A stretch of DNA of 64,000 nucleotides from assembly GCA_041168925.1 (NCBI GenBank), contig JBEEJY010000019.1:2384-66383 (forward strand), read 5' to 3'. Positions within the stretch are counted from its first letter, which is position 1. Each line of letters opens with the position of its first letter. Under the pieces are notes generated by a model. The model worked only from the letters and a program-made list of their open reading frames with translations. It made no database searches and was not told the DNA's origin. Positions 2,385 through 64,000 of this stretch are shown in pieces. A program made the position numbers and the translations under genes. The DNA comes from Candidatus Parcubacteria bacterium. Lineage in GTDB: Bacteria > Patescibacteriota > Minisyncoccia > Phycocordibacterales > UBA2100.

Positions 2385-2419
2385 TACACTTATATGCTCG
2401 GTCGTATAAGATAAGTGTA
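2385..2419. repeat. Palindromic element, copy 1
   Basis: TACACTTAT-N17-ATAAGTGTA, directly abutting the start codon of the regulator gene. Confidence 0.7.
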
Positions 2420-2984
2420 TATGGGCAAATTAGAGGAAACTACGAGACGACGCGCAAAACGGAATCAAATACAGAAAGTAGTTTTAGAGACAATAAAAAT
2501 AGCAGGCATTTTGAGTATTGGCATCGTCGCTCCCAATGTTCTGGGGGCCATGCATAAGCTGGGTCTGATACGGCACGGACGACATGGAGAACTCGTTCGC
2601 AGATCGATCGATCGTATGTATAGTCTTGGCTATTTGAAGCACGTCCGAGGAGGTCTTCAGCTCACTGAGAAAGGCGAGAAGTACCTGCGGACGCTTCAAT
2701 CTAGAATTTTCACTCGAATAAAACCACTCCGATGGGATCATAAATGGCGCATATTAATTTTCGACATTCCCGAACACAACAGGAAGCTCAGGGACCATAT
2801 TCGTCGAACACTGTCGGGGAACGGTTTCATGCAAGTTCAAAAGAGCGTGTGGATATATCCATACGACTGCGAAGACTGGGTCAATCTTTGGAAAGCAGAA
2901 CTCAAAATCGGCAAACAACTTCTTTATCTTATTGTTGATTCTTTGGAAGGGGACTCATCCCTCAAAAGAACCTTTGGCCTGTAG
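2415..2984 (+). CDS. Winged-helix transcriptional regulator, PaaX-like
   Basis: N-terminal wHTH-like region. The C-terminal motif WDHKWRILIFDIPE...LRDHIRRTL..GF..VQKSVWIYP resembles the PaaX C-domain (WDGRWHLV...GF..LQ.GVW). The ORF begins on GTG; an ATG about 6 nt later (MGKLEE) is the likely start. Local GC is about 42% against about 60% elsewhere. Confidence 0.5.
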   Translation: MYMGKLEETTRRRAKRNQIQKVVLETIKIAGILSIGIVAPNVLGAMHKLGLIRHGRHGELVRRSIDRMYSLGYLKHVRGGLQLTEKGEKYLRTLQSRIFTRIKPLRWDHKWRILIFDIPEHNRKLRDHIRRTLSGNGFMQVQKSVWIYPYDCEDWVNLWKAELKIGKQLLYLIVDSLEGDSSLKRTFGL

Positions 2985-2994
2985 TATTTTGTAA

Positions 2995-3029
2995 TACACT
3001 TATGTGCTCGATCGGATAGGATAAGTGTA
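2995..3029. repeat. Palindromic element, copy 2
   Basis: ATACACTTAT-N17-ATAAGTGTAT, 10 nt after the regulator stop codon. It is a direct repeat of copy 1, with 10-bp arms. Confidence 0.7.
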
Positions 3030-3131
3030 TGAGAAGGAATGAGGATAAAAAGGAGGCGAAGAAAGAAGTCGGGGGGGGATGGAAGAAAATGCGGGTAACG
3101 AGTAAGAAGTGCCGTAAGAAGTGAATGTGAA

Positions 3132-4472
3132 TTACAAGCTGCGGGCAGCAATGTCGCGCTTTAACTTCTCGATGAATTTGCCAATCTCTTCCGTCTTCTT
3201 TTGTCCGGTGCGGTTCTCTATCGTCACCGTTTTATCCGCGACCTCCTGATCGCCGACGACGATAAAGTAGGGGATTTTTCCCATTTTCGCATTGCGAATC
3301 CGTTTCCCGAGGCTGTCGCCCTCGAGGAGTTCTACGCGCACTCCGGCTTCTTTGAGTTCTGTCACCGTACTGCGCGCGTACTCCGCGTGCTTGTCGGAAA
3401 CGGGCAACACGGCGACCTGCACGGGCGAGAGCCAGAGCGGGAAAGCGCCTGCGTAGTGTTCGATAAGAAAGGCGATGCTGCGCTCGAAAGTGCCGATAGA
3501 CGAGCGGTGGACGACGAACGCACGATGTTTCTTGCCGTCCTCGCCGATATAGGCGAGGTCGAACCGGTCGGGCATGCAGAAGTCGTACTGCACGGTGAAG
3601 GCGGTATCTTCTTTGCCGTTCACGTTTTTCATCTGTATGTCTATTTTCGGACCGTAGAACGCAGCCTCGTCTTTCGCCTCGAAAAAGTCGCTTCCGCGCT
3701 TCTTCAGCACGCCGCGCAAAAGCTCTTCGCCTTTTTCCCACGCGGTATCGTTTTTATAGTATTTTTCCGCGTTGGAGCGATCTCCGAGCGAAAGCCGGTA
3801 GCGATATTCTTTGCCGTGTTGCAGGCCGAATACTCCCGCGACGTATTCTATGAGATCGAGCGCCTTGTCGGCTTCTTCAGCCGCTTGTCCCTCCGAAGCG
3901 CAAATAATGTGCGCATCCGCGAGGCACATGGATCGCACGCGCTGCAAGCCCATGAGCTCGCCCGATTGCTCGTAGCGATAGAGCTTCGCGAGTTCCGCTA
4001 TTCGCATCGGCAGCTCGCGATAGCTGTGCGGTTTGTCGAGATAGAGCTCGAAGTGGTGCGGGCAGGTCATCGGTCGGAGCATGAATTCTTCGTCGTCGAT
4101 GACGATGGGCGCGTACATCGAATCCTTGTAGTGCGGGTAGTGACCGCTTTTGCGATACAAGTCGAGCTTCGCGATATCGGGCGTATAGACATGCAAGTAA
4201 CCCCGTTTGATTTCTTCATCCACTATGAAGCGTTCAAGCTCGCGGCGTATGACTGACCCGCGCGGAGTCCAGAGGGGGAGTCCTTTGCCTACGGCGTCGG
4301 AGAAGGTGAAGAGATCAAGTTCGCGACCCAACTTCTTGTGGTCGCGTTCATTGGCATCGGCCGCCGGCTCGTTCTTCATCGACCTAATATAGCAAGGAAT
4401 TGCGCTACGTAAAATCGAAGCGGCGGCCGAGAACTTGTCTCGGTCGCCGCGTTTATCCGCTGTAGCGAACAC
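3132..4472 (-). CDS. thrS: Threonyl-tRNA synthetase, catalytic and anticodon-binding core only
   Basis: RDHKKLGRELDLF, class II motifs (YRYEQSGEL...RVRS...ADAHII), C-terminal anticodon-binding domain. The N-terminal TGS and editing domains are absent. The start may instead be the downstream Met (MKNEP...). Confidence 0.9.
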   Translation of the reverse strand: MFATADKRGDRDKFSAAASILRSAIPCYIRSMKNEPAADANERDHKKLGRELDLFTFSDAVGKGLPLWTPRGSVIRRELERFIVDEEIKRGYLHVYTPDIAKLDLYRKSGHYPHYKDSMYAPIVIDDEEFMLRPMTCPHHFELYLDKPHSYRELPMRIAELAKLYRYEQSGELMGLQRVRSMCLADAHIICASEGQAAEEADKALDLIEYVAGVFGLQHGKEYRYRLSLGDRSNAEKYYKNDTAWEKGEELLRGVLKKRGSDFFEAKDEAAFYGPKIDIQMKNVNGKEDTAFTVQYDFCMPDRFDLAYIGEDGKKHRAFVVHRSSIGTFERSIAFLIEHYAGAFPLWLSPVQVAVLPVSDKHAEYARSTVTELKEAGVRVELLEGDSLGKRIRNAKMGKIPYFIVVGDQEVADKTVTIENRTGQKKTEEIGKFIEKLKRDIAARSL

Positions 4473-16273: not shown

Positions 16274-23127
<6,854 letters not shown>

Positions 23128-25038: not shown

Positions 25039-26352
25039 ATGAGGTGGGCGCAGCGCGCAAGTGATATGGCAAAGGAAAAACACAAGAAAACGACGCGAGG
25101 CAAAGCTTTCTCGGCAGGCAAACGCAAGAAAGCGTCAACCGGAAAGCGGTCGCGTTTGGCACGCAAAGCCGCTCGTCAGACGGCGCGCAAGCTGCGGCAG
25201 AAAGCGCGCAAGAAGGCAAGCCGCGCGTCGCAGTCGAACAAACAAAAACACTCCGGCGGCATCCGCGCGATGGGGCACAAACAACAAGACAAAGTTGAAG
25301 CGCTCATCACGCTCGGCCGAGAGCGCGGCTACGTGACCTACGACGAAATCTTGCGAGAATTTCCGACGATCGAGGACAACGTCGTTCTCCTTGAGGAGAT
25401 GTATGAACGCTTCGGCGCCGCCGGCATCGACGTCTTGGAAGGCGGCGGCATGCTCGAGGATTCCTCGGCAGACTCGGTGCTTGCTTCCAAAAAGCTGCAG
25501 AATCGCCGTTCGGATTCGAGTTATGATAGCGTTCAGATGTATCTGCGAGAAATCGGCCAGTACCAGCTTCTCACCGGCAACCAGGAAAAAGAACTCGCGA
25601 AGCGCATTTTGCAGGGCGACGAAGAGGCGCGAAGCATTCTCGCGCGCTCCAATTTGCGCCTCGTCGTGTCGATAGCGAAGAAATACGTGAATCGCTCCCC
25701 CGATCTGACCCTTCTTGATCTAATCCAGGAAGGAAATCTCGGGCTGTTCAAGGCTGTAGATAAGTTCGATCATACAAAGGGCTACAAATTCTCGACTTAC
25801 GCCACCTGGTGGATCCGCCAGGCGATTACCCGCGCGCTTGCCGACCAATCGCGCACGATCCGGATCCCCGTGCACATGGTGGAGACGATCGCGAAATACA
25901 AGCAAAAAGTGCGCGAACTCTCGCAACACCTCGGCCGCGATCCGCTTCCGGAGGAAATCGCCGCGGAAATGGGCATCGAACTCGACAAGATCTACACCAT
26001 CCAGAAGATCAATCAGGACACCGTTTCGCTCGAATCGCCGGTGGGGGAAGACGACGACGAGCGCTCCACTCTCGGCTCATTTATCGCCGACGACACCATC
26101 GCTTCGCCGGACCAGGATGCTTCACGCAGAATTCTGAATGAGCAGATGATCGAAATTCTCGATGAGCTTTCACCAAAGGAGCGCAAGATACTCGAAATGC
26201 GCAACGGACTCACGCCCGAGGGCATCTGCTTCACGCTCGAAGAAGTTGGCAGGGAATTTGGCGTTACCCGCGAACGAATCAGGCAGATTGAAGCGAAGGC
26301 TTTGGAGCGGATCCGCTTTCACGAGCGCGCGAAGCAGTTGAGGAGTTACTAG
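25039..26352 (+). CDS. rpoD: RNA polymerase sigma-70 factor
   Basis: Region 2 ([13 protein letters not shown]), region 4 HTH, Lys-rich N-terminal region. Confidence 0.9.
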
Positions 26353-26416: not shown

Positions 26417-26456
26417 GAGCATCACATATTCAAAAATCTGTACGACCGTGGTGATT
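26417..26456. repeat. 40-bp palindromic intergenic element, copy 1
   Basis: ATATTCAAAAATC-tgtACGACCGTggt-GATTTTTGAATAT, lying between convergent genes. Confidence 0.7.
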
Positions 26457-26492
26457 TTTGAATATTGATTCTTGTGTAAGATCGACATCAAA

Positions 26493-26519
26493 CGGCCGGG
26501 CTGCAAAGAAGCCCGGCCG
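26493..26519. repeat. GC-rich REP-like hairpin, copy 1, probable terminator
   Basis: ATCAAACGGCCGGGC-loop-GCCCGGCCGGTC. The same arms recur at 27978..28010. Confidence 0.55.
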
Positions 26520-26544: not shown

Positions 26545-26991
26545 TTACGCTGCGTTGCTGCGCGCGATGTCGCACTTCATGGAGTGCCGCACTTCGAGCG
26601 CGTCCTCGATATTGACGTGTTCGACGTTGATTCCGCGAGACGCGAAAATCGCAGCCGCAAATCGGATGTCGATGTTGAGCACCACCCACGGCTTGTAGGG
26701 ATGTATTGCAAGCGCGTCGGCCAGCTTCACGGCTCCCTCGCAGATCTCGTCCTCGCCCAACTTCACATGATTCGTGATATACACGAGATCGAGTTCCGGC
26801 CGCTTGCCGATGAACGTCACCGCGTAGTCGAACGATCTCACCGGATTGGCGACGTAGTTCCAGCCCATGTGCCGACCAAGCAGGCCATCCTTCACGGACC
26901 TCTGGAAGTGATCGTAGAAACTCGCAGCAACCCCGATCATCAGCACGTCGGCATACATCGGCACTACTCCGCGAATGGTTCTCACTTGCAT
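26545..26991 (-). CDS. Hypothetical protein, possible flavodoxin-like fold
   Basis: 148 aa beginning MQVRTIRG, with alternating hydrophobic strands (YADVLMIGV, DLVYITNH, PWVVLNIDI). The longer upstream extension in the ORF track lacks support. Confidence 0.45.
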   Translation of the reverse strand: MQVRTIRGVVPMYADVLMIGVAASFYDHFQRSVKDGLLGRHMGWNYVANPVRSFDYAVTFIGKRPELDLVYITNHVKLGEDEICEGAVKLADALAIHPYKPWVVLNIDIRFAAAIFASRGINVEHVNIEDALEVRHSMKCDIARSNAA

Positions 26992-27096
26992 CGTCTGCTC
27001 CTCACGGCGGTCAGCCCCGCCTTTGGCAACCGGTAGGACAATACAGCATTCCGAACCATCATTCAAATCAAGCGCCTCGCGTGTTACATTGTTTTT

Positions 27097-27426
27097 ATGC
27101 GGGAGGGTATACAGCCGGTACCGAATACGCCGGAGTACATCGAAGTAATAAAAACAGGGTTTAAAGACGCCGGTAACAAACTTCATTTTGAGTTCAAATT
27201 TGCACACCCCGTCTCTCCGGAGCGCATGAAAGAGATGTGGGGCGATAAAGAAAGCGCGATCCATAATATAATGCTTCACAGGTTGCAGGAGAAGGGATGG
27301 CTCACCGGAAACGGCATGAACGAAACCGTCCCCTTCAGCAATGCCGGGGAGCATAGCGACGACGGAAGAACGTGGACGTTTGAGTGCCAGCGTACCGATG
27401 TCGGGGACGAGGATGACGAGGATTGA
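27097..27426 (+). CDS. Hypothetical protein with an acidic C-terminus
   Basis: 109-aa ORF divergent from 26545..26991, ending in DVGDEDDED. Confidence 0.45.
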   Translation: MREGIQPVPNTPEYIEVIKTGFKDAGNKLHFEFKFAHPVSPERMKEMWGDKESAIHNIMLHRLQEKGWLTGNGMNETVPFSNAGEHSDDGRTWTFECQRTDVGDEDDED

Positions 27427-37198: not shown

Positions 37199-37270
37199 TG
37201 CGCGGTGAGGGGATTGAACCCCCGGCCTACCCTACGTCAAAGGGTCGCTCTACCACTGAGCTAACCGCGC
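37199..37270 (-). tRNA. tRNA-Val (GAC)
   Basis: Hand-folded cloverleaf: 7-bp acceptor stem, anticodon loop TTGACGT, T-loop TTCAATC. CCA is not encoded. Confidence 0.8.
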
Positions 37271-40666: not shown

Positions 40667-40738
40667 TGACCCTATCGGGAATCGAACCCGAGTTAACAGC
40701 TTGAAAAGCTGCTGTCCTAACCACTAGACGATAGGGCC
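40667..40738 (-). tRNA. tRNA-Glu (TTC)
   Basis: Hand fold: anticodon loop TTTTCAA, T-loop TTCGATT, one G-U pair in the acceptor stem. No CCA encoded. Confidence 0.75.
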
Positions 40739-54240: not shown

Positions 54241-55416
54241 TTACTTTCTGCGCAAAAAAGATGGCAGCCCGCCCCACGAATCGTCGTCTTCCGCAGGAAC
54301 TGCTTTCGCGAGCTCCACGGGTTTCGCCGGTTCTTTCGCTTTTTCCGGTTCGTTGCGCTTCATCTCCTCGCGAGTGCGCGGGTTGACCGGCGGTACGTCA
54401 GCATCCTTCTTGGCGGCAAGGCGTTGGGCACCCGCAAAAAGCGTCGCGCGCTGGACGGTCTCCGGGAAGCCCGTCGCGATGACCGTAACGCGCACCTGGC
54501 CTTTCTTGAGCGCCGGATCGGTGACGGCGCCGAAGATAACCTTCGCATCGGGATCGATCGCTTCGGTGATGACGTTGGCCGCATCCTGCACCTCGAGCAT
54601 TCCGAGATCCTCGCCGCCGGCGACGGAGAAGAGGACCCCCTTCGCGCCGTGGATGGAGACTTCGAGAAGCGGGGAGTTGATCGCGGCGCGGGCGGCAATC
54701 TCGGCGCGATGCTCGCCCATCGCGGTGCCGATGCCCATGAGCGCGCTTCCCGCGTTGTGCATGATCGTCTTCACGTCGGCGAAGTCGACGTTGATGATGC
54801 CTGTTTGCGTGATGAGGTCGGAAATTCCCTCGACTGCTTGTTTCAAGATGTCGTCGCACATCGCAAACGCGTTCTTGATGCCCGTGTCGCGCGAGACGAT
54901 CGTGAGCAACTTGTCGTTGGGGATGATGATGAGCGCGTCGACCGCCTTTCGAAGCTCCGCGAGTCCTTGCTCCGCGAGGCGCATGCGCTGCTGGCCTTCA
55001 AAACCGAACGGTCTCGTGACGACGCCCACCGTAAGCGCGCCGAGTTCTCGCGCGACTTTCGCGACGATCGGCGCGGCGCCGGTGCCGGTGCCTCCACCCA
55101 TACCGCAGGTGATGAAGACCATGTCGGATCCTTTCACCGCTTCTTGGATCTCCTCACGTGTTTCCTCGGCCGCCTGCTTGCCGAGTTCGGCGTTCATGCC
55201 CGCGCCAAGACCGCGCGTGAGATTTTTGCCGACGTGGATTTTTCGCTTCGCTTTGTTTTTATGCAAATCTTGTCCATCGGTATTGATGGCGATAAAATCG
55301 ACTCCCTGCACGTGGCTCGCGATCATGTGATTGACCGCGTTGCCTCCCGAACCTCCGACTCCTATCACTCGTATCCTCGCGAACGACTCGACATCGGGCT
55401 TGATCGCTTTGACCAT
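54241..55416 (-). CDS. ftsZ: Cell division GTPase FtsZ
   Basis: [10 protein letters not shown] and the GGGTGTG tubulin signature. C-terminal linker and peptide present. Confidence 0.95.
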
Positions 55417-55513
55417 AGTTGGCACATAGTACCATTTCGCGCCAAAGCGCAAACTTGACGTTTTGCAGGAGCCGTGTTTAATTCAGCGACCGCAACAACT
55501 GGAGGAAATTCCA

Positions 55514-55810
55514 ATGGCTTGGCGGATCTTGCTCGTTGGCAGGGACACGTTTCTGCTTCGGAATACGCTGCAAAGCGGCGGCTTCGTGAGCGGGTCGGGG
55601 TTCGAAATGATCGAGGCGGGCGGCATCGATGCCGCTCTGCGCGAATTGAAAAACGATGATTCGATCGTCGCGGTCGTGGTCAGCGAAGCAGCGCAGCGCA
55701 CGAAAATCCGGGCAGACGGTCACGATCGGGCGCAACAGGTTGCCGCGTTCGTGAATAACGCGCACCTGCTTCGTCAAATGCGAAACTTGCGGCCGCACGT
55801 CGCCGCTTGA
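55514..55810 (+). CDS. Degenerate receiver-like (pseudo-REC) small ORF on the strand opposite ftsA/ftsZ
   Basis: GGAGG RBS 9 nt upstream. RILLVGRD...IVAVVVSE resembles the REC beta1/beta3 strands but lacks the conserved Asp residues. About 98 aa. Confidence 0.35.
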   Translation: MAWRILLVGRDTFLLRNTLQSGGFVSGSGFEMIEAGGIDAALRELKNDDSIVAVVVSEAAQRTKIRADGHDRAQQVAAFVNNAHLLRQMRNLRPHVAA

Positions 55811-55882: not shown

Positions 55883-55922
55883 ATGTTCAAAATGTCTCAC
55901 GGTCGTGAATGTTTTTGAACAT
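55883..55922. repeat. 40-bp palindromic intergenic element, copy 2 (the most perfect copy)
   Basis: ATGTTCAAAA-tgtcTCACGGTCGTGAatg-TTTTTGAACAT, with perfect 10-11-bp outer arms plus an inner inverted repeat. Confidence 0.75.
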
Positions 55923-55969
55923 TCCGATAGTAGTCAGTTGGTGGCATACGACCGGTTGAGAAGGCAATG

Positions 55970-63541: not shown

Positions 63542-63581
63542 TTGTTCAAAAACACTCACGGTCGTGAATTTTTTTGGATAT
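63542..63581. repeat. 40-bp palindromic intergenic element, copy 3
   Basis: TTGTTCAAAAAcacTCACGGTCGTGAatTTTTTTGGATAT, about 175 nt upstream of the gyrA start. Confidence 0.65.
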
Positions 63582-63756
63582 TTTTATGATATGCGCAATG
63601 GTGCACGATTTATGCGAATGATATGGGAGACGCGGACGTCAAAGAAGGCAGCCGTTTGAGCCGGGCGATCCTATATTTCGCGGCTTGCAAAACGGCTTAA
63701 TTTTCCGCCGATTTTACTGGATTTTGACGTCAGTATTTGATATAATTTGAAATATT

Positions 63757-64000
63757 ATGGCACGCGGAAAAGGGGAGGAACATGAAGGGAATTTCGCCCC
63801 GGTCCCTGCGTCGAAGGGCATCGTGACGAGGAGTATTTCGGCCGAGATGCGCGAGAGCTATCTCGATTATGCGATGTCGGTCATTACCGCCCGCGCGCTT
63901 CCCGACGTGCGTGATGGGCTAAAACCGGTGCATCGCCGCATTCTCTACGCGATGCAGGAGCTCGGATTGACCGCGAGCGCGAAGACGCGCAAGAGCGCGA
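63757..64000 (+). CDS. gyrA: DNA gyrase subunit A, 5' partial
   Basis: [38 protein letters not shown] matches the GyrA N-terminus. The gene runs off the window end. Confidence 0.85.

Follow-up and report, generated by a model that had tools for sequence, protein, structure and literature searches.

The 64-kb window analysed here (positions 2384-66383 of a 70.6-kb contig from a 'Candidatus Parcubacteria' metagenome-assembled genome, MAG) contains three copies of a 40-bp compound palindrome, located after rpoD, after ftsA and before gyrA. On the sequence evidence, the three sites are probably solo, dispersed copies of a palindrome that brackets the gene for a small protein, termed here mini-PaaX, and they are predicted recognition sites for such a protein, spread by copying in the manner of repetitive extragenic palindromic (REP) elements. 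This reading is carried by the observed association of gene and palindrome, the covariation of the palindrome arms with protein lineage, the geometry of the site, and its turnover between genomes. The contig is Kaiserbacteria-like Parcubacteria by its sequence, and its FtsZ is 80-90% identical to Kaiserbacteria proteins.

Copies of the palindrome and the gene it brackets

The pattern TTCAAAA-N6-ACGRYCGT-N5-TTTTTGRA was matched at three sites in the window (six strand hits; spans 26429-26462, 55886-55919 and 63545-63578), compared with 0.00 expected from 100 shuffles, and an nhmmer search of the same 64 kb with a profile of seven class-A copies (arms TGTTCAAAA / TATTCAAAA) returned only these three sites and no weaker extra copy. 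The three copies counted in the initial annotation are therefore borne out. Its coordinates were correct for copies 2 and 3 and off by 9 nt for copy 1 (26426-26465, not 26417-26456), and the flipped core that it described for copy 1 comes down to the central dinucleotide, AC instead of GT, the remaining ACG..CGT being itself palindromic. The arms of copy 3 are imperfect, with three mismatches and two slightly different subtypes, and those of copy 1 are identical to the arms bracketing the mini-PaaX gene of another locus, L045. Independent point mutation cannot account for three occurrences of a 40-bp site in which more than 22 positions are fixed, and the three sites are thus taken to be copies.

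In most distinct loci carrying the palindrome, the adjoining gene was found to encode a protein of ~190 amino acids in which a winged helix is joined to a Cas2-like (PaaX_M) domain, that is, mini-PaaX. All 16 mini-PaaX genes examined had a copy of the palindrome on each side (the cassette in the window and those of loci L002, L003, L004, L011, L013, L014, L020, L022, L032, L035, L036, L037, L044, L045 and L046). In eight of the 14 cassettes tabulated, the upstream copy ended between -2 and +1 nt from the ATG, and in the other six it stopped 17-23 nt short of it; past the stop codon, the downstream copy followed within ~10 nt in most cassettes, with a maximum of 56 nt. The cassette in the window (2385-3029; Table 1) is of another arm class, class B (TACACTTAT-N17-ATAAGTGTA), and sits between convergent genes. 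Class-A arms bracket genes of the mini-PaaX type in L002, L003 and L045. The family extends to Saccharibacteria (L011), and one MAG was found to have two paralogues (locus tags Q7S34_01460 and Q7S34_02690).

The positions of the cassettes vary widely. That of L035 (10001-10567) lies inside a ribosomal-protein operon, between rplE (L5) and rpsH (S8), that of L036 between the genes for L28 and an M50 peptidase, and that of L037 between aspS and scpA. A DUF5674 gene is present ~1.6 kb upstream of the mini-PaaX gene of L037, and in L029 two adjacent palindromes and a third (3000-3087 and 3809-3848) flank, in place of a mini-PaaX gene, a unit of a DUF5674 gene and an open reading frame (ORF) of 95 codons.

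Table 1. Palindromes and bracketed gene in the window (window coordinates; class-A and class-B denote arm classes).
Feature	Position	Strand	Sequence or basis
Class-B upstream bracket	2385..2419		TACACTTAT atgct CGGTCG tataag ATAAGTGTA; ends 1 nt before ATG
Mini-PaaX gene, 187 aa	2421..2984	+	tblastn; Pfam PF20803, E=8e-21; fold search
Class-B downstream bracket	2995..3029		TACACTTAT gtgct CGATCG gatagg ATAAGTGTA; begins 10 nt past stop
Copy 1, class-A compound palindrome	26426..26465		ATATTCAAAA atctgt ACGACCGT ggtgat TTTTGAATAT; centre AC; solo
Copy 2, class-A compound palindrome	55883..55922		ATGTTCAAAA tgtc TCACG GT CGTGA atgt TTTTGAACAT; solo
Copy 3, class-A compound palindrome	63542..63581		TTGTTCAAAA acac TCACG GT CGTGA attt TTTTTGGATAT; solo
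Candidate remnant of a palindrome centre	55946..55955	-	CCGGTCGTAT; between ftsA stop and copy 2

The mini-PaaX proteins are 187-200 amino acids long, and the winged helix is followed by the Cas2-like PaaX_M domain (Pfam PF20803, E values of ~1e-18 to 1e-21) without the C-terminal domain of PaaX. The AlphaFold model has a mean predicted local distance difference test (pLDDT) score of 69.5, with residues 1-51 below 50. A fold search gave Rv0674 (3kfw) and E. coli PaaX (8a39) as the best structural matches, followed by many Cas2 proteins (target TM-score ~0.5-0.6), and a profile search of PDB sequences agreed with this; phmmer with a single protein against the PDB returned nothing useful. Homologue searches gave 707 clusters at E<=1e-5 and 2,129 clusters at E<=1e-20. 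The family thus comprises more than 2,000 clusters at 90% identity, whose names, where given, are only of the Patescibacteria type, and viral contigs yielded neither the protein nor the palindrome pattern.

Public labels of the homologues vary between 'Cas2', 'PaaX family' and hypothetical. PaaX proper, the phenylacetate regulator of ~300 amino acids, was rejected as an identity on account of the missing C-terminal domain, scores of 34-45 bits for the NCBIfam PaaX equivalog TIGR02277 against a cutoff of 264.55, housekeeping neighbours and the lack of paa genes nearby. Scores for the NCBIfam Cas2 model TIGR01573 were 23-29 bits and straddle its cutoff of 24.5, which accounts for the public 'Cas2' annotation. 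Cas2 proper was also rejected, as only β1-α1-β2 matches (~39 of 96 model positions). The Asp residue aligned with the YDI Asp of the Cas2 protein SSO1404, which we take to be catalytic, is invariant in mini-PaaX (D115 in the window protein), as is a YPYDCE motif; the same position is Glu in E. coli PaaX and Thr in Rv0674.

The N terminus of mini-PaaX is basic and is followed, in the window protein and its homologues, by a hydrophobic stretch (residues ~20-48) with Kyte-Doolittle maxima of 1.84-2.17 over a 19-residue window. This stretch may be a membrane anchor or may form helices H1-H2 of the winged helix. An anchored protein with its DNA-binding part outside the cell could select DNA carrying the palindrome of its own lineage, and the palindrome would then be a DNA-uptake signal, which we consider very unlikely. 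The basic N terminus, the hydrophobic stretch and the low-confidence model of residues 1-51 are consistent with it, as are arms that would act as lineage-specific 'dialects' and the location of sites near core genes. CPR (Candidate Phyla Radiation) bacteria rely on DNA uptake, and the uptake sequences of Neisseria occur as inverted pairs that double as terminators. However, the hydrophobic stretch aligns with the winged-helix helices H1-H2 of Rv0674 and so may be no membrane helix, the density of ~1 site per 20 kb is far under that of known uptake sequences, and competence genes were not consistently linked.

Geometry of the site and covariation with the protein

Complementarity between the two halves was scored per position in 26 non-redundant 40-mers, a measure chosen over RNA covariation because a palindromic DNA site mimics compensatory change. 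Counting outwards from the dyad, it was 81-100% for positions 2-5, dropped to 35-38% for positions 6-8 and was again 77-100% for positions 11-19. The element is accordingly described as two nested inverted repeats split by spacers that are predicted to be uncontacted, and the non-complementary positions 6-8 argue for a bipartite double-stranded DNA site rather than a selected hairpin. The two outer arms are of 9-10 bp each and lie 32-34 bp apart, centre to centre, around a central palindrome of 8-10 bp with a non-palindromic GT/AC middle. Most lineages have ACGGTCGT as this centre, and three have CTATAG.

The half-sites are spaced as TGTTCA-N26-TGAACA in copy 2 and as GTATCC-N28-GGATAC in relatives. 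The E. coli PaaX site is TGATTC(N27)GAATCA, and PaaX represses its own promoter (PMC9493321). The feature typical of PaaX operators, two short inverted half-sites ~26-28 bp apart, is therefore present in the palindromes. The same spacing bears on the likeness to SOS/Cheo-type half-sites that had been remarked upon for the GAAC/GTTC pair: GTTC and GAAC stand 26 bp apart, which makes the likeness irrelevant and rules out a LexA/Cheo-type site. Two other known sites were tried and rejected. The 16-bp parS site of ParB (TGTTNCACGTGAAACA) had no match with three or fewer mismatches, the centre here being CACG-GT-CGTG, and the candidate DnaA box TATCCACA, which occurs within the upstream bracket in the L022 clade and also beside L005 and L034, is simply the arm of that class.

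Alignment of the recognition helices showed that the outer arms and the predicted recognition helix both differ by protein lineage. Helix RFKNQSDNVLTRL pairs with arms AT(A/G)T(T/C)CAAAA, helix RFNYQAKTALGRL with arms TATCCA(A/C)AA, helix FRYRSDKILTRL with arms AGGTAGCATTTTA and helix HGELVRRSIDRM with arms TACACTTAT; the Cas2-like half of mini-PaaX is nearly invariant across lineages. The central dinucleotide evidently flips often. Bracket pairs have the same centre orientation in four cases and the opposite in five, and at one locus found twice (L015 3159-3198 and L019 1220-1259, flanks 92-99.7% identical) a perfect 40-bp palindrome has its central GT flipped to AC with respect to the flanks.

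We propose that the two winged helices of a mini-PaaX dimer would read the two outer arms, as at PaaX operators. An upstream bracket at or within ~25 nt of the start codon would then allow mini-PaaX to repress its own gene, by analogy with PaaX at the Px promoter, and the class-A palindrome would belong to a protein of the L003/L045 type. The copy before gyrA would be a vestige, or a landing site, of the cassette of sister genomes, and the copies after rpoD and ftsA would have arisen by copy-and-paste into 3' intergenic DNA. We infer that the protein binds the palindrome, that its effect at solo sites may be that of a roadblock, that of an insulator or nothing, and that a copying agent was at work. 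Among the roles put forward in the initial annotation, that of a protein-binding site gains support, in that the palindrome brackets a PaaX_M gene, has arms that covary with the protein and shares the geometry of PaaX operators.

An RNA-level element, either a bidirectional terminator or a 3'-end stabilizing hairpin built of A-tract, stem and T-tract, is quite unlikely, even though many copies lie 0-10 nt past a stop codon, the CAAAA...TTTTG flanks look like those of a bidirectional terminator and some relatives have a plain hairpin after ftsA. Copies 1 and 2 were predicted to fold more stably than shuffles (z = -2.1 to -3.6), but copy 3 folded no better than shuffles (z = -0.9 and -1.5). The intrinsic-terminator arrangement of a GC-rich stem of at least 5 bp directly followed by a T-run is absent from the three elements, and the terminator scan was blank at all three sites, though it detected a neighbouring hairpin at 26493-26519; canonical GC-rich terminators already stand beside several copies. 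Moreover, positions 6-8 are non-complementary in most copies, upstream bracket copies are located at gene starts and, across genomes, the sequence is kept and not pairing alone. The terminator or structural RNA role suggested at first is thus not upheld. A search of the whole window against Rfam reached the gathering threshold with two tRNAs alone (37199-37270 and 40667-40738, both on the minus strand), and the palindromes match no RNA family.

Turnover in relatives and the reading of the solo sites

Two scans, one covering 185,579 species genomes and the other Joint Genome Institute (JGI) metagenomes, each gave matches with a GT/AC centre only in MAGs of Paceibacterota, Kaiserbacteria and Taylorbacteria and in groundwater contigs. 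Two arm classes dominate, namely (A/G)TGT(T/C)CAAAA, as in the window, and GTATCCAAAATA. All copies seen were intergenic. At loci with flanks of 72-80% identity, the copy that lies downstream of one gene shows no difference at all (100% identity), and the solo copy found between ftsW and murG keeps 92.5-97.5% identity next to a flank of ~70%. An element that is 92.5-100% identical between flanks of ~70-80% points to selection on the element. Several classes can occur together (two in the window, two in L024, five in L021). Five tandem compound palindromes of five arm classes, with CGGTCG or CTATAG centres, lie within 250 bp in L021 (770-1148), between two convergent, individually terminated genes, an arrangement like that of bacterial interspersed mosaic elements (BIMEs).

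Two groups of pattern matches were set aside. The Rhodoferax matches (L009 4724-4757, also L007 and L010; TTCAAAAA...CGATCG...TTTTTGAA) lie 10 nt upstream of a TetR-family gene, which is followed by an acyl-CoA dehydrogenase gene, with no mini-PaaX near; the palindrome is probably a TetR operator with no relation to the CPR family. The Lachnospiraceae and Flavobacterium matches have AT centres and no mini-PaaX gene near, and were taken as unrelated.

In the window, copy 1 lies between the stop codons of rpoD (25039-26352, plus strand) and of a convergent 269-codon ORF (26545-27354, minus strand), separate from the canonical terminator hairpin mentioned above. An element also follows rpoD in L024, a locus that has a divergent-gene context as well; the 269-codon ORF is unrelated to the nuclease that L024 has next to its post-rpoD element. 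Copy 2 is located 47 nt past the ftsA stop codon. The next conserved gene is the co-directional ftsZ (true start 55416), and between ftsA and ftsZ lies, on the opposite strand, a 98-codon ORF (55514-55810, plus strand) with a GGAGG Shine-Dalgarno sequence, for which no Pfam match and no homologue at the syntenic loci of relatives were found. In L040 and L043, unrelated small called genes occupy this place. The claim that two copies sit between convergent genes therefore holds for copy 1 and, for copy 2, only if the non-conserved 98-codon ORF is real. Copy 3 lies 34 nt past the stop codon of a conserved 122-codon ORF and 175 nt before the gyrA ATG (63757), which confirms the distance given earlier. 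The stretch CCGGTCGTAT beside copy 2 may, on a weak 8-nt match, be the decayed centre of an older palindrome; L040 has ...gagTACGGTCGTActt... in the same place.

Promoter-like motifs were seen before both downstream genes. A conserved motif TCAAGTTTGC-N17-TACTAT (55458-55426, minus strand) ends 9 nt before the ftsZ ATG at 55416 and is common to the window, L018 and L040-L043. It suggests an ftsZ mRNA that is leaderless or has a very short leader, and the ORF start called mechanically at 55452 is probably wrong. The gyrA ATG is preceded, at ~10 nt, by an extended -10 motif, TGATATAAT (~63738-63757), which has close variants in L030, L018, L040, L044, L045 and L046 and suggests that the gyrA transcript is near-leaderless.

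The question of a conserved regulon was judged on five syntenic Kaiserbacteria loci. A shared downstream flank, aaaagaagaccgcctcg, indicates that the post-ftsA places are orthologous. At this spot L040 and L043 have a different arm class with the same centre (ACATACATAATAA...ACGGTCGT...), L042 has another class, and L041 and L044 have a plain hairpin; the L002 genome, with its closely related TCCAAAA-arm cassette, has no palindrome there. The gyrA-upstream element was absent in L040-42 and L044. A mini-PaaX cassette is inserted between the S1 gene and pth in L044, and none is present there in the window or in L040-42. L044 also encodes a 593-residue serine recombinase with a Resolvase domain (19015-20796), ~15 kb away from this cassette.

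All four cassettes of the L003-related clade (L002/L018, L003/L030, L045, L046) lie in the spacer between the 122-codon ORF and gyrA, with a Lactamase_B_3 gene beside the 122-codon ORF. The proteins are 55-100% identical to that of L003, and three of the four cassettes have class-A arms. In the window this slot holds the solo copy 3 in place of a cassette. The simplest reading is that the gene was lost by recombination between its two brackets; alternatively, copy 3 may be a landing site. For the copies after rpoD and ftsA, presence is lineage-specific. Conservation in relatives therefore extends to the type of palindrome, which recurs in related genomes, but not to sites 1 and 2, which are missing or replaced by other classes in close relatives.

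These observations make it unlikely that the sites are operators of a conserved regulon, through which a global regulator, one of the candidate binders in the initial annotation, would control the growth and division genes rpoD, ftsA/ftsZ and gyrA. Such a regulon would agree with the PaaX-type geometry, with the element that follows rpoD in both the window and L024, and with the housekeeping or envelope neighbours of many loci (ftsW-murG, amidase, rplJ, rpoD). One solo palindrome of L024 (765-804; of yet another class, TGTTCGTTAAC...ACGACCGT...GTTAACGAACA) also adjoins a canonical promoter, ending 12 nt before TTGACA-N17-TAAATT, which is followed by AAGGAG and ATG. On the other hand, site 2 is missing or replaced and site 3 absent in the relatives described above, site 1 lies between convergent genes, and the distances to downstream starts range from 11 to ~470 nt. 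The sigma-70 promoter scan gave no signal at the three elements, and a palindrome placed over a promoter was seen only at the upstream bracket copies of cassettes and not at the three class-A sites of the window.

A reading that overlaps with that of copied recognition sites, and differs from it in the activity of the protein, is a partnership like that of REP elements and REP-associated tyrosine transposases (RAYTs). Here, mini-PaaX would act as an enzyme, copying or moving the palindromes through cuts that its Cas2-like domain makes at the conserved centre. Solo copies would then be mobile elements of the non-autonomous kind, maintained along with their single-copy 'master' gene. We regard this as possible but less probable. 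As in RAYT systems, the genes are short (~565 bp) and bracketed by copies with class-specific arms, with several classes together in the window, L024 and L021 and two paralogues in one MAG. The presence or absence of the cassette in syntenic DNA (L044 compared with the window and L040-42), the different classes held at the post-ftsA spot, the improbability of a 40-bp site arising thrice by point mutation and the invariant Asp and YPYDCE of the Cas2-like domain are further points in its favour. Mini-PaaX is, however, not an HUH/Y1 transposase, and we know of no nuclease or transposase activity in PaaX_M domains. The window has a low copy density, ~1 per 21 kb; within 15-20 kb, four classes have no more than their two bracket copies (one of them in L036), and the solo ftsW-murG copy, kept where its flanks have diverged to ~70% identity, suits a selected site. 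No target-site duplications are visible; no direct repeats were seen flanking the three copies, each element being one 40-bp palindrome. The REP/MITE-like role suggested earlier (MITE, miniature inverted-repeat transposable element) is thus apt in so far as the element is copied, dispersed, intergenic only and lineage-specific in its presence, and fails on the MITE-type target-site duplication. A specific version of enzymatic mobility, in which mini-PaaX would recognize the bracket palindrome by its arms and cut the asymmetric centre (ACG/GT/CGT) through a Cas2-like domain whose Asp and YPYDCE are invariant, thereby copying or recombining palindromes and mobilizing the cassette between intergenic slots, is doubtful.

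Several points weigh against solo recognition sites as the reading of the three copies. A cognate class-A gene was not found in the window or in the initial 15.4 kb of the contig, which take in the 2.4 kb upstream of the window and together cover all of the 70.6 kb but the last ~4.2 kb, and none of the matches listed (120 of 2,129 homologues) has the locus-tag prefix of this MAG. Only the class-B paralogue was seen in the searched parts of this genome, and the three sites may be orphans. The solo sites also lie off the promoter-like motifs, ~450 nt from that of ftsZ and ~150 nt from that of gyrA. The N-terminal ~50 residues of the protein are of low model confidence and include the hydrophobic stretch, and an anchor with the C terminus outside would preclude binding to the chromosome. 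Finally, the copies on either side of the gene could be there for mobility and not for regulation.

Significance and comparison with known systems

CPR bacteria have very few recognizable regulators and almost no described cis-elements or mobile repeats, and full-text literature searches found no description of an association between mini-PaaX and a palindrome. The outcome here is a testable protein-site pair that recurs across Paceibacteria, with variable arms around a fixed centre and a match between protein and site that is readable from sequence, together with evidence that genomes accumulate copies of the sites. Should the protein act as a repressor and nothing more, these organisms would have their first described candidate for a regulator-operator system, and the common mislabelling of the family as 'Cas2' would be corrected. 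Should it move the sites as well, it would be a REP/RAYT analogue with a Cas2-like enzyme and would bear on the origin of Cas2 and PaaX; cutting and mobility would give a Cas2-like domain its first enzymatic mobility role beyond CRISPR adaptation, and CPR bacteria a new class of mobile DNA. In either case, the post-ftsA element offers no evidence of a conserved control of cell division.

The palindromes resemble bidirectional intrinsic terminators in having an A-tract and a T-tract and in lying past stop codons, and the Saccharibacteria version (L011) is a perfect AAAA-stem-TTTT palindrome. They differ in their AT-rich stems with an internal mismatch block and in a sequence that is kept between unrelated loci and genomes. 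With the ferredoxin-fold nucleases Cas2 and VapD, mini-PaaX shares a C-terminal half that aligns with β1-α1-β2 of Cas2, including the YDI-aligned Asp; in mini-PaaX, however, this domain is fused to a winged helix, and the neighbours that were annotated included no CRISPR array or cas gene that was noticed.

RAYT genes are ~500 bp long, REP-flanked and single-copy, each with its own REP family and with several pairs per genome, and REP copies are extragenic only, often at 3' ends, and clustered (PMC3337134). Extragenic palindromes, often at 3' ends and in clusters, with a class-specific, repeat-flanked, single-copy short gene are likewise what was found here. Unlike RAYTs, mini-PaaX has no HUH/Y1 (IS200-like) domain, Pfam, NCBIfam and the fold search giving only a winged helix and PaaX_M/Cas2-like domain, and the elements are single compound palindromes of 35-40 bp rather than REP doublets, with a copy number that appears low, three class-A copies having been counted in 64 kb, where REP elements run to tens to hundreds of copies per genome. 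REP elements are described as carrying a GTAG/CGTC tetranucleotide tag at one end (PMC3733652). Measured against that description, the palindromes bear no terminal GTAG/CGTC tag; they end in ATGTTC, ATATTC or GTATCC, and the one place where CGTC is seen is the centre of the GTATCC class.

The PaaX repressor of E. coli and Pseudomonas, a GntR-type winged helix followed by a Cas2-like dimerization domain, has the same two-domain order as mini-PaaX, and inverted 6-bp half-sites ~27 bp apart are likewise found at the regulator's own promoter (PMC9493321). The CPR protein differs in its length of ~190 amino acids, lacking the C-terminal phenylacetyl-CoA-binding domain, and in having no paa genes nearby. 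The CPR site, for its part, has an extra conserved central palindrome, a second copy that always lies past the stop codon, and dispersed solo copies.

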